Shown piece after piece: positions 15,760 through 19,429 of a DNA stretch of 64,000 nt. Within the stretch, counting starts at the first letter, position 1, and every line of letters begins with the position of its first letter. Location: the sequence record MH791400.1; one strand, written 5' to 3'. Source of the stretch: Escherichia phage EcSzw-2. A model generated the notes under the pieces. That model made no database searches. It was not told the DNA's origin and saw only the letters and a program-made list of their open reading frames with translations. The position numbers were made by a program, and so were the translations under genes.

Positions 15760-15942
15760 TCAATTGTTTTCGTTATGTTTCTTTCCAGTTCCACCACAAT
15801 AAGGGCAGCAACCATAACTTACCAGACCTGTACCGTCGCAATCTTCACACTCTTCTGCACCGAAGTAGTGTTTAGCCAGAAGGTATCCAATTACAATCAG
15901 GCCACCAAATGACAGGATTAACTCTAACCAATAACCTTGCAT
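15760..15942 (-). CDS. small membrane-anchored protein with two DnaJ-type CxxCxGxG zinc-finger repeats (60 aa)
   Basis: TM segment LELILSFGGLIVIGYLLA followed by CEDCDGTG and CPYCGGTG. Confidence 0.5.
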   Translation of the reverse strand: MQGYWLELILSFGGLIVIGYLLAKHYFGAEECEDCDGTGLVSYGCCPYCGGTGKKHNENN

Positions 15943-16259
15943 AACTTCTCTCCAACATGTTTGTACAGGATGAAACTACGGTCATGAACAATACTTGAGG
16001 CAACTGCAAAGTTCTCTTCCAGTATTGCTTTGTTCGGATTATAGAATCCGTCTAAGAATTGGTCAAGTGCTAATTGGTGATTTTGTGGAAGACCTTTAAC
16101 ATAAATCTTCATAGAAAGCGTGGCAACCACTTCACCTTGAAGTTCATCTCGTGCTGCTACCAAGATTTGGTTAATGAACTTGTGACCATCTTCAGGACGT
16201 TTAATGTCATCCCAATTCTCTTCCAAGACCATATTGATATTCATCTGTTTGATTTTCAT
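15924..16259 (-). CDS. hypothetical protein (111 aa)
   Basis: ORF in operon. Confidence 0.5.
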   Translation of the reverse strand: MKIKQMNINMVLEENWDDIKRPEDGHKFINQILVAARDELQGEVVATLSMKIYVKGLPQNHQLALDQFLDGFYNPNKAILEENFAVASSIVHDRSFILYKHVGEKLCKVIG

Positions 16260-16275
16260 AACATTCTCCAGAAAT

Positions 16276-16296
16276 TAAAAAGGCTCCCGTAGGAGC
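16276..16296 (-). terminator. rho-independent terminator
   Basis: minus strand ggctccTACGggagcc + ttttt downstream of NAMPT-like gene. Confidence 0.7.
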
Positions 16297-16312
16297 CTCT
16301 TATAATACTTAT

Positions 16313-18139
16313 TTAAAGCTGTCTGTCAATAACATTTCGTACATCACGAAGGTTAACGTAGCCATATGGCTGAGAGTCGCAGAATACCAGCTTCAGAGCA
16401 CACTGAGGGTTATCCAGTACACTTTCAAACTCTGCAAAACCAAAGCCATCCACAGCTTCCAGCTTATCACCATCCCACATAGGGACTACACCACCAAAAG
16501 CAGACTTCTTAAGACCACTGTCAGTTTTAGGGTCTTTTGCCAGCATGATTTCTTCACCATCCATCTGTGCAAGAGTTGCTTTAACAGCAAATGCAAAGGT
16601 ATCACGAGTCATGTACTGGTAAGTGTATGAACCAACACCGAAGACAACGTTAGAACTTGCAAAGCCCTTTTCAGCAAGACGGCTAAGAATCTCTTCAGCA
16701 CGTTCCAGAGTGATAGAATCACCGTAGATTAAACCAATGTGTTCATCAAGAACTTTGTAGCCTTTAGAGTTTACAGCGCCACCAAAAATGTTGTACAGAG
16801 TCTTGATAGCACCATCAATTTCTGCTGTCAGCATTGGTTTAACAACAACTTGACCAGTCTTGTAAGTATCTTTCAGGTTAACTGTATCAGCAACGTTAAA
16901 GTCTTCTGCATCAACAACCAACTCATAACCTTCAGAGATTAGCCAAGCAGAGAAGCCATAGCCCATATCTGACATGTTGCAATTAAGGATTGCATCAAGC
17001 AGATAAGTATTGTTAGGAGAAATGGTTGACATGTGTTTGTAATACATGCTCTTAGCATTTTCCCATTCAATTGCACGATAGCCAGTAACAATGTGTACAG
17101 GGTCACCGGAATCTGGACGGATTACCAGTTTACCATCACGTTTCAGGATTACTTCACGGAGTTCTGGAAGAATCTCTGTAACTGTACGCCAGAAGTTGTA
17201 AGTATCGGACACAACACTTGCAATACCAGTTGGGTAAACATCTACCAGCAGGTGTTCAAATGTTTTAACCTCACCACGCCAGCGTTTAGCATCCAGCAAA
17301 CTATCAGACTGCATGATGTACTGTGAGTGAATGTCATCTTCTGTCAGGTCTTTCATATTCCATGAAATGTTTGCACACATCACAGAGTGTTCAGTTGCTG
17401 GAACAGAGTTACCAATATCACTTACAGTCATGAACTGACCATATGCACGTTTAGCAGTATACACAGCAGGGAAGCTATCAGTACCTTTAAAGCTTGTCAG
17501 GTGACCTACAGCATTGAAAGCATCATCTGTGAATCCAGACATACCACGCATTGCAAAGTCGTGACACTGCCAAGGAAGATGGAAGTCATTGTCACAGGTC
17601 TTATCAGACCAAGATTTACAGATACGTTTGTAATGCAGTGCAATAGTTGCAATGGTACAAGCTTTCCAGATTTCAGCAGAGAAAGCATCTTCCAGATAAC
17701 CAGCTACCCAATGGAAGCCCTCAACGGTATTTTTGAAGATAATCATTGGAACACGCATAGGAACGATTGTGCCTTCTTCAACAGAGTACACTGCAACTGG
17801 CAGATAGCCTAAGTCGTGAAGTTCTTCCCAATGATGACGCTTGATAGCATCTGCACCGAGAACACCATTCATGATTTCCAAGATTTCATCAACAGCTTCT
17901 TTCTTATCACGTTCGAAGAAAGTTGCATTCCAATGGTCTACTAAGTAATCTTTAACGAAACGTTGGATACCAAAAGCAACTACACCGTCAGTCTCCAAAG
18001 GAGTGTTAAACCACTTATTACCACGAGGTGTAAGGTTCAGCATCAGGTGCTGAGTTGTACTTGGGTACTGGTAGATGTGACCAGCTTTGTAAGCATCTGC
18101 GTTAAGACCTGCTGGAACTGCATAGATTGATTTAGACAT
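16313..18139 (-). CDS. nadV: nicotinamide phosphoribosyltransferase family protein (NAMPT/NadV-like; candidate Namat-type NAD+ synthesis enzyme)
   Basis: 608 aa; N-terminal ...NADAYKAGH... (DxYK) and C-terminal ...FGVGSYTYQYMTRDTFAFAVKAT...LAKDPKTDSGLKKSAFGG... are NAMPT hallmarks. Confidence 0.75.
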   Translation of the reverse strand: MSKSIYAVPAGLNADAYKAGHIYQYPSTTQHLMLNLTPRGNKWFNTPLETDGVVAFGIQRFVKDYLVDHWNATFFERDKKEAVDEILEIMNGVLGADAIKRHHWEELHDLGYLPVAVYSVEEGTIVPMRVPMIIFKNTVEGFHWVAGYLEDAFSAEIWKACTIATIALHYKRICKSWSDKTCDNDFHLPWQCHDFAMRGMSGFTDDAFNAVGHLTSFKGTDSFPAVYTAKRAYGQFMTVSDIGNSVPATEHSVMCANISWNMKDLTEDDIHSQYIMQSDSLLDAKRWRGEVKTFEHLLVDVYPTGIASVVSDTYNFWRTVTEILPELREVILKRDGKLVIRPDSGDPVHIVTGYRAIEWENAKSMYYKHMSTISPNNTYLLDAILNCNMSDMGYGFSAWLISEGYELVVDAEDFNVADTVNLKDTYKTGQVVVKPMLTAEIDGAIKTLYNIFGGAVNSKGYKVLDEHIGLIYGDSITLERAEEILSRLAEKGFASSNVVFGVGSYTYQYMTRDTFAFAVKATLAQMDGEEIMLAKDPKTDSGLKKSAFGGVVPMWDGDKLEAVDGFGFAEFESVLDNPQCALKLVFCDSQPYGYVNLRDVRNVIDRQL

Positions 18140-18159
18140 GTTTTAATCTCTCTCAAAGT

Positions 18160-18180
18160 GGGGCTTTGCAGCCCCTGATT
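18160..18180 (-). other. GNRA-loop GC hairpin (ggggcu-GCAA-agcccc) between Prs-like and NAMPT-like genes; no strong U-run
   Basis: ggggctttgcagcccc on + strand; same element at ~26159; relatives at ~13302 and ~49775. Confidence 0.5.
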
Positions 18181-18184
18181 AATT

Positions 18185-19066
18185 TTAGTAAATGTTTGCT
18201 ACAGTTACTTGACCGAAATGAGTCAGACCACGGTCTTTTGCACTACCTAAAGAGTCTGTAGTGTAGATGTGTGAAATCCCATTGTCAAGCAGGTTTTCAA
18301 CACCTTTTGAGAAAATACCATGTGTTACATACAGTTCAACTTTAGCTGCTCCAGCTTCACGAAGATACTTGGCTGCTTCAATGAATGTACGACCACCATC
18401 ACAGATATCATCAATGATGAGTACAGTTTTACCAGTCAGGTCTACATCATCCAGTAGACGCATACCTGTAATCTCACCAGTCTTCAGGTCTCGAACCTTA
18501 GCCATTGTAACGTAAGGCTTATCAACCTCTTTAGCCGTCTCTGCAATCTTCTTAGCTGCTCCTGCATCTGGTGCTACCAAGAAATCAATGGTAGGCTCAC
18601 TGGCATAGTGTGCTGCAACATCTTTTTGATGGATGTTCTGGAAGCATTTGAACAGGTTATCTGCAACGTCACTGTGGGCGTCTAGAGCACATACTGCATC
18701 AAAACCCATTGCATTGACCAGATTAGCAAACACCTTTAGTGCTGCTGCATCACCTTTAAATATGTGACGGTCATAGCGAGCATTTGGCAGATAAGCAAAG
18801 ATGACAGTTTTCATAGTTGCTTGCTGAGGAATCATTTTGTCGATTGCCTCTTTTGCCAGAGCTAAAGCAAACAATGTGTCTTTGTCATAACCCTGTACAG
18901 TGAAGATGACGTTCTCAATCTGGGAAGCATTCTCTTCAGCATAGATTACTAAGTCTTCAGAGAAGTTACCACCAATTTCTCCAGACGGGAACTGGATAAT
19001 GTTGAACTCTTCTTGGTGAGCACCTTTTTTCTGTGAGTGCAACAGTACGCTAATAATAGTTTTCAT
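18185..19066 (-). CDS. prs: ribose-phosphate pyrophosphokinase (PRPP synthetase) family protein; could equally be an ADPR-pyrophosphate synthetase (Adps-like)
   Basis: 293 aa; PRPP-binding loop VLIIDDICDGGRT; directly upstream of NAMPT-like gene. Confidence 0.7.
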   Translation of the reverse strand: MKTIISVLLHSQKKGAHQEEFNIIQFPSGEIGGNFSEDLVIYAEENASQIENVIFTVQGYDKDTLFALALAKEAIDKMIPQQATMKTVIFAYLPNARYDRHIFKGDAAALKVFANLVNAMGFDAVCALDAHSDVADNLFKCFQNIHQKDVAAHYASEPTIDFLVAPDAGAAKKIAETAKEVDKPYVTMAKVRDLKTGEITGMRLLDDVDLTGKTVLIIDDICDGGRTFIEAAKYLREAGAAKVELYVTHGIFSKGVENLLDNGISHIYTTDSLGSAKDRGLTHFGQVTVANIY

Positions 19067-19078
19067 CTTTAATCTCTC

Positions 19079-19429
19079 TCAATCAAAAGTTACAAAGGTT
19101 ACAGCCATAGCTGTTTTGCATTTTTGTGGATTCACAATGTGATAGATTACTGAACAGTTATCTGTTCCATCTGGGACTGGTTTTGTCCAAGTGCGTTCAA
19201 CATTTGGTTCACCGAGTTCTTTGTAGAATCCATTTGTGTGATGGTCAATCATCTCAAGTGCTAATGAGTCTGGTACATGACCACGAATCATATACATCTC
19301 ACAACCATTGCCAGCATCACTTACAAGGTCTTTTATTTCCCAATCTGCTCTAGCCACGATAAGTTGCCTTATAAACAGTTTCGAATTTCGACAAGAGAGA
19401 TATTGCCAGAACTGCATATTCTCTGTCAA
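19079..19429 (-). CDS. hypothetical protein (116 aa; start uncertain, overlaps HNH ORF)
   Basis: ORF in operon. Confidence 0.4.
   Translation of the reverse strand: MTENMQFWQYLSCRNSKLFIRQLIVARADWEIKDLVSDAGNGCEMYMIRGHVPDSLALEMIDHHTNGFYKELGEPNVERTWTKPVPDGTDNCSVIYHIVNPQKCKTAMAVTFVTFD

Follow-up and report, generated by a model that had tools for sequence, protein, structure and literature searches.

A mini-protein with a predicted membrane anchor and zinc knuckle of DnaJ/Anti-TRAP type is encoded upstream of rIIA in Felix O1-like phages

The subject of this study is a mini-protein of 60 amino acids (aa), encoded in a 64,000-nucleotide (nt) stretch of DNA from Escherichia phage EcSzw-2 (MH791400.1), the whole of which is called the window in the following. 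Its open reading frame (ORF), here termed the mini-ORF and known as EcSzw1_30 in phage EcSzw_1, is a genuine phage gene under purifying selection. The product is very probably built of one transmembrane (TM) helix followed by one zinc knuckle, and is best classed with the J-less DnaJ-like zinc-finger proteins as a new variant that is viral and minimal. With respect to its role we tentatively favour, at somewhat less than an even chance, an accessory bitopic inner-membrane protein in which the zinc knuckle acts as a protein binder.

The mini-ORF runs on the minus strand from an ATG at 15942-15940 to a TGA stop codon at 15762-15760 and its translation is MQGYWLELILSFGGLIVIGYLLAKHYFGAEECEDCDGTGLVSYGCCPYCGGTGKKHNENN. 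Coordinates and length are exactly those of a preliminary description of the window, in which the strand had been left unstated. The 2-kb stretch round the mini-ORF is 100% identical to Escherichia phage EcSzw_1 (MH791413.1; Suspvirus, Ounavirinae), a Felix O1-like myovirus, and window coordinates equal the coordinates of that record plus 567. In GenBank the ORF of EcSzw_1 is labeled EcSzw1_30, 'hypothetical protein'. The gene and its translation start signal are located as follows.

15760..15942, minus strand: coding sequence of the mini-protein, 60 aa (EcSzw1_30; PHROG 3931), stop codon included, defined by the ORF, the PHROG match, dN/dS and homologues
15948..15953, minus strand: Shine-Dalgarno sequence GGAGAG, 5 nt ahead of the ATG and within the 3' end of an upstream 111-aa ORF, by direct reading

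The Shine-Dalgarno sequence, the ratio of non-synonymous to synonymous substitutions (dN/dS), the presence of homologues in 256 phage records and the match to PHROG 3931 together identify the mini-ORF as a real gene. Ribosome-binding sites are annotated at the equivalent place in the phages Mijalis and Maleficent. Pairwise dN/dS values are 0.06-0.3 for unsaturated pairs, also after removal of the codons that overlap the upstream ORF, and the hidden Markov model of PHROG 3931 (function unknown) is matched over its full length (E 2.4e-27, residues 1-57 against profile positions 1-58 of 59). A chance ORF might be suspected from the short length of 60 aa and from the 19 nt at its start that are shared with another ORF. 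However, a dN/dS far under 1 even without the overlap codons and Cys and Gly residues that are invariant across 31-97% identity effectively refute this explanation, to which we assign next to no probability. The Shine-Dalgarno sequence and the retention of the gene in more than 350 phage genomes of two families also speak against it.

The predicted parts of the protein are encoded at these positions.

15874..15930, minus strand: predicted single TM helix, codons 5-23 (WLELILSFGGLIVIGYLLA), by Kyte-Doolittle analysis and AlphaFold2
15826..15849, minus strand: first CxxCxGxG half-site, CEDCDGTG (C32 E D C35 D G37 T G39), with C32, C35 and G37 invariant and G39 conserved in at least 90%
15784..15807, minus strand: second CxxCxGxG half-site, CPYCGGTG (C46 P Y C49 G G51 T G53), with C46, C49, G51 and G53 invariant and P47 conserved in at least 90%

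The N-terminal TM helix of the preliminary description is borne out by a Kyte-Doolittle mean of 1.97 over residues 5-23 (2.15 over the 17-residue core 6-22) and by an AlphaFold2 model, calculated from a 9-sequence alignment, with a helix at residues 4-27, then short hairpins and no helix after the knuckle. The two repeats CEDCDGTG and CPYCGGTG, also recognized there, are the only CxxCxGxG matches in all six frames of the window and lie 14 residues apart in one ORF. The Cys residues are spaced C-x2-C-x10-C-x2-C (offsets 0, 3, 14, 17), and directly before C46 stands an extra, nearly invariant Cys, C45. In a 14-sequence alignment reaching 43% identity, C32, C35, G37, C46, P47, C49, G51 and G53 are invariant and C45 nearly so. 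When the whole homologue set is considered (all lineages, down to 31% identity), the invariant residues are M1, C32, C35, C46, C49, G37, G51 and G53 only. The preliminary description had staked its reading on the conservation of the Cys motifs in homologues, and the invariance of the motif Cys and Gly residues upholds it on this point.

To place the domain, the family profile was compared with the PDB. It showed significant similarity to solved DnaJ Cys-rich domains (CRDs), namely that of DnaJ itself (1exk, E 1.4e-6) and that of DNAJA3 (2ctt, E 1.1e-5), and a marginal one to Anti-TRAP (2bx9, E 0.043), with the Cys and Gly residues aligned in each case. These matches support the earlier view that the repeats are the zinc-finger unit of DnaJ/Hsp40. 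The single mini-protein sequence stays under all curated cut-offs: it scores 14.1 bits against Pfam DnaJ_CXXCXGXG (PF00684; gathering threshold 32.7), and its best sub-threshold NCBIfam matches are DnaJ (TIGR02349, 19.9 bits against a cut-off of 377) and RtpA (NF058604, 14.1 bits against 65). No DnaJ (J-domain) Pfam match was obtained at E up to 1, and the N-terminus is occupied by the TM helix. Since J domain, G/F region and C-terminal domains are all missing, the mini-protein is not a DnaJ. It also has two repeats only, whereas the CRD of the DnaJ co-chaperone (PF00684; 1exk, 2ctt) has four, which form two interleaved zinc centres and sit between the J domain and G/F region on one side and the C-terminal substrate-binding domains on the other. 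What both have in common is the CxxCxGxG unit, and DnaJ repeats 3-4 show the same Cys spacing as the phage protein.

Anti-TRAP (RtpA) of Bacillus subtilis and B. licheniformis (2bx9, 3ld0) is a J-less, free-standing protein of 53 aa, in which two DnaJ-type half-sites build one Cys4 zinc site, and which acts purely by protein binding. The C-x2-C-x10-C-x2-C single-site spacing in a free-standing protein of about 50 aa is found in the phage protein as well. In contrast to the latter, Anti-TRAP is soluble, TM-less and equipped with a C-terminal helix for trimer and dodecamer assembly; it is cellular and regulatory, whereas the mini-protein is phage-encoded. By its RtpA score, its TM helix and the lack of a helix after the knuckle, the mini-protein falls outside the RtpA family. 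The structure of Anti-TRAP shows one Zn(Cys)4 centre made by a pair of such half-sites within the same hairpin, and on these grounds the mini-protein appears to be a membrane-anchored zinc knuckle that resembles Anti-TRAP and corresponds to half a CRD. Because C32, C35, C46 and C49 are invariant and have Anti-TRAP-like spacing, we infer that they bind one Zn2+.

The order of the two parts is also not without precedent. Arabidopsis FIP (At5g02160) combines a TM segment with two CXXCXGXG repeats and binds the membrane protease FtsH5 (PMC5915565). In FIP and related J-less thylakoid proteins (LQY1, SCO2/CYO1) a hydrophobic anchor is followed by a C4 finger, in the same order as in the phage protein. 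These proteins differ from it in being eukaryotic, longer and plastid-targeted with a transit peptide, and the likeness is one of architecture only. As membrane-tethered DnaJ-like fingers are thus known in plants, the architecture is less unusual than it seemed, and the preliminary description put it too strongly when it called a free-standing, membrane-tethered finger 'unusual'; Anti-TRAP, FIP (PMC5915565) and more than 350 phage records say otherwise. The family is already catalogued (PHROG 3931) and uncharacterised, its domain is of a known kind, and the TM-plus-knuckle layout has its precedent in plants. Searches of the literature for CXXCXGXG phage proteins and for transmembrane DnaJ-like zinc fingers in bacteriophages yielded no study of the family.

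Several further candidates for a relationship were rejected. The match to Pfam DUF5351 (E 0.013, 12 residues) is motif-only. Weak PHROG matches to 'antitermination protein Q-like' families and a match in Xylella phage Xfas53 concern a different protein which, at 240 aa, TM-less and encoded upstream of lysis genes, shares the Cys knuckle alone. T4 rIIA.1, the small ORF upstream of T4 rIIA, has neither a TM segment nor Cys residues. PADLOC gave no match for the mini-protein or the 111-aa protein.

The orientation in the membrane was judged from charges and Cys counts. The N-flank carries no Lys or Arg in any of 10 representatives drawn from all lineages, and usually has one acidic residue, while the C-terminal domain has 2-8 Lys/Arg residues in every one of them, and in nine at least one of these lies within 12 residues after the helix. 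By the positive-inside rule, a K/R-free N-flank with K/R after the helix predicts an N-out/C-in topology, as in Pf3 coat-type proteins. The C-domain of the mini-protein contains 5 Cys, an odd count. Exported, DsbA-oxidised domains are biased to even Cys counts, and an odd count is typical of cytoplasmic zinc sites. Charge distribution and Cys count therefore favour N-out/C-in as the most likely topology, which would place the knuckle at the cytoplasmic face of the membrane.

Full-length homologues were found by tblastn in 256 phage records, all of them of Felixouna-, Moogle- or Suspvirus type, and a word-indexed homology search with the mini-protein returned Ounavirinae proteins only. Felix O1 gp131 (Felix01p243), SUSP1 gp080 and Bas63 g83 are true orthologues of the same length and synteny with 43-90% identity, labeled 'hypothetical' or 'putative membrane protein' and without assigned function. 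The homologues of Kolesnikvirus and of Pectobacterium phage Arno162 (Ounavirinae) were missed by BLAST and were found by inspecting the slot upstream of rIIA. In Erwinia phage phiEa21-4 (Kolesnikvirus) this slot is occupied by gp117, a 54-aa protein with a TM segment, CKHCDGTG and CPFCQGTG, which matches the mini-protein family in hhalign with a probability of 96.7% (E 3.7e-10) and is present in 36 further records. In Arno162, orf146 encodes a 52-aa version directly after the NAMPT gene.

The annotation of phiEa21-4 also led to RB49p046 of the T4-like Krischvirus RB49, a 52-aa protein with TM segment and finger that is found in about 59 Krischvirus records and is linked to Felixounavirus proteins by reciprocal tblastn over TM segment and finger (42% identity). 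RB49p046 begins before the nrdH glutaredoxin gene ends, in its final 11 nt (locus L020 384-801; NC_005066.1 29883-30300), and on a metagenomic contig (L015 255-699) a gene for a TM segment and knuckle likewise starts in the last 11 nt of a glutaredoxin/thioredoxin-like gene. This overlap may reflect a redox link or simply local gene packing. Two distant full-length metagenomic mini-proteins (P0139, P0112) have the same layout and match PHROG 3931 at about 1e-8 each. An exhaustive profile search gave 412 matches, nearly all finger-only and to multi-repeat CxxCxGxG proteins, and a scan of IMG/VR returned essentially the same Ounavirinae loci again. No full-length cellular homologue was detected in a profile scan of one genome per species (185,579 species); one finger-only match came from a Bacteroidetes metagenome-assembled genome. 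In total the family is represented in over 350 genomes of the databases, from no fewer than two virus families, and on current evidence it appears to be phage-restricted.

Some database labels of these homologues deserve comment. In Kolesnikvirus records such as OQ818707.1 (Rouille), OQ818703.1 (Panisse) and PP278848.1 (Omen) the 54-aa homologue is named 'dnaJ: chaperone protein' or 'chaperone protein', an over-annotation in view of the missing J domain and of a Cys-rich domain of which only one half is present. Copies of the Felixounavirus-type mini-protein and 111-aa ORF also occur in MG065664.1 ('Campylobacter phage A132') and in one 'Staphylococcus phage' record; these records, named after unrelated hosts, are probably mislabelled or contaminated.

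The neighborhood of the mini-ORF in the window comprises the following genes and signals.

15924..16259, minus strand: 111-aa ORF (EcSzw1_31, PHROG 4262, function unknown), upstream of the mini-ORF, the start of which is overlapped by its last 19 nt
13335..15701, minus strand: rIIA, the downstream neighbour (ORF and annotation)
12146-13255, minus strand: rIIB, after rIIA (ORF and annotation)
16313-18139, minus strand: NAMPT, in the upstream NAD+-reconstitution module (module 16313..19066)
18185-19066, minus strand: ribose-phosphate pyrophosphokinase (Prs), in the same module
16302-16329, minus strand: promoter-like site, sigma-70-like, 11/12 consensus matches (consensus scan only)
16278-16301, minus strand: terminator-like hairpin of 10 bp with a T run, just after the NAMPT stop, its 5' side abutted by the promoter-like site (consensus scan only)
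15735..15763, minus strand: promoter-like TTGACA-N17-TAAAGT with a 9-bp hairpin, overlapping the mini-ORF stop (consensus scan)

The order Prs, NAMPT, an optional small ORF, the 111-aa ORF, the mini-ORF, rIIA and rIIB is kept in every Felixouna-, Moogle- and Suspvirus locus that was examined, and so is the 19-nt overlap. This overlap indicates that the 111-aa ORF and the mini-ORF are probably translationally coupled. Their co-occurrence is near-perfect (257 against 256 phage records for the 111-aa protein and the mini-protein, respectively). However, the 111-aa protein is not an obligate partner, since Arno162 lacks it and Kolesnikvirus has no recognisable counterpart. It has no match in Pfam, NCBIfam or PADLOC, and no similarity was detected to RB49 NrdH or phiEa21-4 gp116. 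Its AlphaFold2 model is poor, with a predicted local distance difference test (pLDDT) score of 58 and a beta-alpha-beta-alpha-beta-beta order, and gave in Foldseek only weak IF3-C/SepF-like matches against the PDB (E >0.009) and its own family against BFVD.

A terminator is annotated in Mijalis and phiEa21-4 at the place equivalent to the hairpin behind NAMPT. The promoter- and terminator-like signals at this site suggest that the small ORFs and rIIA could form a transcription unit apart from the NAD+ module. Mini-ORF and rIIA are separated by a 58-nt spacer (15702-15759). Ahead of the rIIA ribosome-binding site Susp- and Mooglevirus carry an insert of about 35 nt, absent from Felixounavirus with its 28-nt spacer, that contains the promoter-like site and the hairpin. 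The insert sequence of SUSP1 and Moogle differs from that of EcSzw_1 and SUSP2, and both versions are palindromic. In comparison with shuffled sequence the spacer hairpin is not significantly more stable (z -1.18).

Two side observations concern this region. Escherichia phage vB_EcoM_ESCO56 (OM386665.1; L006 2463-3177) has lost Prs and nearly all of NAMPT, of which 168 nt are left as an annotated remnant; the 111-aa ORF is still present, and so is an intact mini-ORF that the record does not annotate. Just upstream of Prs, at about 19079-19354 on the minus strand of the window (record 18512-18787), lies EcSzw1_34, an apparently disrupted small gene that GenBank gives as a misc_feature 'similar to hypothetical protein'.

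Functional data are available for orthologues and neighbors of the mini-gene. In phage Bas63 (JohannRWettstein), g79 (Prs) and g80 (NAMPT) were found experimentally to counter Sir2-HerA, while g84 (rIIA) and g85 (rIIB), reported as co-essential, counter QatABCD (PMC11482910). RIIA and RIIB of SUSP1 counter lambda RexAB (PMC11879866). The mini-gene (Bas63 g83, SUSP1 gp080) thus sits between two validated counter-defence modules, NAMPT with Prs and RIIA/RIIB. In a published CRISPRi-ART screen SUSP1 gp080 reached a fitness value of 1.05 (7 guides, Kolmogorov-Smirnov P 0.11) and was classed as 'Not Fit' at a threshold of 1.2; a slight polar effect on rIIA, itself Semi-Fit, could account for the score. 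Frameshifted or truncated mini-genes are present in phiWec172/174/177 (LC739530-LC739532), NJ12 (OQ845959) and GE_vB_B3 (MG969406), seen as the proteins P0009, P0011 and P0012 and as two-piece tblastn matches. These alleles are either viable natural knock-outs or sequencing errors. Taking the 'Not Fit' class of the SUSP1 homologue and the natural frameshift alleles together, the mini-gene is accessory. Concerning timing, reverse transcription PCR (RT-PCR) in Felix O1 places the peak of the genes on either side of gp131, gp130 and gp1, at 25 min (PMC3185647).

From these data the following mechanism can be proposed. The mini-protein would consist of a 5-residue acidic or uncharged N-tail, one TM helix (about residues 5-23) and a 36-residue C-terminal part, in which the two CxxCxGxG half-sites would fold back on each other to give a single Cys4 zinc knuckle. 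An N-out/C-in topology would hold this knuckle against the cytoplasmic face of the membrane. Its synthesis would fall in the early-to-middle phase and would probably be coupled to translation of the 111-aa ORF upstream; for growth on laboratory hosts the gene is dispensable. As a membrane-tethered module it may bind a membrane-proximal, cytoplasm-facing target stoichiometrically, either as an Anti-TRAP-style blocker or as a FIP-style adaptor, and may in this way contribute conditionally to host takeover or counter-defence. To our knowledge, every characterised J-less relative of this knuckle works by binding another protein. A binder role is proposed for this reason, Anti-TRAP blocking TRAP and FIP binding FtsH5, and because of the flanking genes a conditional part in host takeover or counter-defence is the most economical guess. 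As a specific claim, this binder or counter-defence role is possible but doubtful. A bolder version seems to us quite unlikely. In it the mini-protein would be the first of a phage-specific class of membrane-tethered zinc-knuckle inhibitors, a viral equivalent of FIP and Anti-TRAP, and would dock on the cytoplasmic side of a host inner-membrane machine and neutralise it in cooperation with the RII and NAD+ genes, the candidate targets being the protease FtsH or an effector of membrane-depolarising defence similar to RexB or QatB.

Several observations weigh against the protein-binder reading. The confidence of the AlphaFold2 model is moderate (pLDDT 64.5, and 58-62 over the finger), and although Foldseek ranks Anti-TRAP and the DnaJ CRD on top, the E values are above 1 and not significant, which is due to the tiny size of the knuckle domain. 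The position beside anti-defence genes is circumstantial only. Bas63 g83 is nowhere mentioned in the text of the PhageMaP defence screen (PMC11482910), and gp131 is missing from the RT-PCR table of Felix O1 (PMC3185647). The screens accordingly lend no support to the preliminary proposal of interference with a host chaperone or a membrane-associated defence protein, a possibility suggested by context: SUSP1 gp080 is Not Fit and g83 is absent from the PhageMaP text. Moreover, the charge argument for the topology is not uniform: close to the membrane, the C-flank of Susp- and Moogle-type proteins is acidic on balance, and the Arno162 protein has a Lys in its N-tail. Many unrelated metagenomic CxxCxGxG-repeat proteins carry classical signal peptides, which means that this finger type can also work outside the cytoplasm.

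The acidic C-flank and the signal peptides would suit a different protein, a periplasm-facing (N-in/C-out) thiol-disulfide oxidoreductase or redox relay that uses CxxC dithiols as in LQY1 and SCO2/CYO1, possibly together with a phage redoxin. An acidic C-flank would be translocation-friendly, and the cleavable signal peptides or lipoboxes of many metagenomic repeat proteins point to extracytoplasmic fingers. The conserved extra C45 beside C46 and the overlap of the gene start with the end of a redoxin-like gene in about 59 Krischvirus records and contig L015 may be added. However, as NrdH is a cytoplasmic redoxin, this coupling is no argument for a periplasmic domain, and in Ounavirinae there is no redoxin neighbour. 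The invariant xGxG is a zinc-knuckle signature common to Anti-TRAP and DnaJ, the Cys count of the C-domain is odd, and the positive charge lies after the helix and not in the N-tail of any of the 10 representatives; we regard a redox function as unlikely. It is also unlikely that the protein serves the RII module (RIIA/RIIB), or the co-translated 111-aa protein, as an accessory subunit or as an anchor whose TM helix supplies the membrane attachment that a soluble partner lacks. The genomic position does invite this idea: rIIA directly follows the gene in all Ounavirinae lineages that were examined (Felixouna-, Moogle-, Susp- and Kolesnikvirus, Arno162), after only 28 nt in Felixounavirus, the gene overlaps and co-occurs with the 111-aa ORF, and both small ORFs were kept by ESCO56 when NAMPT was lost. 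Yet the RB49-type homologue lies behind nrdH, far from the rII genes, the Arno162 mini-protein exists without any 111-aa gene, and the Kolesnikvirus neighbour gp116 has no detectable similarity to the 111-aa protein. In addition, gp080 is Not Fit whereas rIIA is Semi-Fit, and PhageMaP, which stresses the detection of co-essential partners (g84 and g85 against QatABCD), does not mention g83 in its text.

Two more specific functions have to be considered. The preliminary description had thought of a host chaperone, and a specific form of this idea would be a decoy of the DnaJ zinc centre that disturbs the host DnaK/DnaJ cycle at the membrane. The best sequence relatives are indeed DnaJ Cys-rich domains, and DnaK-dependent substrate locking is helped by the second zinc centre of DnaJ. 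On the other hand, only half a CRD is present and no J domain, the likeness is limited to the generic knuckle, the SUSP1 orthologue gp080 shows no growth or fitness phenotype on laboratory E. coli, and the literature search found no link of Felix O1-like phages to DnaK dependence, all of which makes a decoy very unlikely. A holin, antiholin or other lysis-timing component is highly improbable. It would agree with a small membrane protein with a charged C-terminus next to the rII 'lysis inhibition' genes, and gp131 is one of five holin candidates named in the genome paper of Felix O1, purely on TM criteria (PMC3185647). However, holins are not marked by a single TM helix joined to a conserved zinc knuckle, the Not Fit class of the SUSP1 orthologue and the apparently viable natural frameshift alleles speak for dispensability, and the flanking genes peak in the middle stage, not late. 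The neighbors in the window are rIIA and the 111-aa ORF and no lysin, the RB49 homologue belongs to an nrd cluster, and the CPT annotators, who are specialists in lysis genes, labeled the mini-protein only as 'membrane protein'. A holin is recognized by its requirement in lysis and plaque formation, by one to three TM segments, usually by an endolysin gene next to it and by late expression, and the mini-gene does not qualify as one. The accessory, membrane-tethered protein binder stays the explanation that we tentatively prefer.

The small membrane proteins of phages hold a store of host-manipulating factors that has hardly been explored. The mini-gene is near-universal in Ounavirinae, including therapy and typing phages (Felix O1 relatives) and the model phages Bas63 and SUSP1, it recurs in RB49-like T4-type phages, and the modules beside it defeat NAD+-depleting (NAMPT and Prs) and membrane-depolarising (RIIA/RIIB) defences. 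If it has no role as a binder, it would be one more conserved accessory gene of unknown function, and the gain would be a better annotation, 'membrane-anchored DnaJ/Anti-TRAP-type zinc-knuckle protein' in place of 'DnaJ chaperone' or 'holin candidate'. If the mini-protein is indeed a membrane-tethered binder of a host protein, one TM helix with one zinc knuckle would be a new minimal scaffold for the anti-defence and host-takeover repertoire of these phages, and it might help to explain how the enigmatic RII region works at the membrane.

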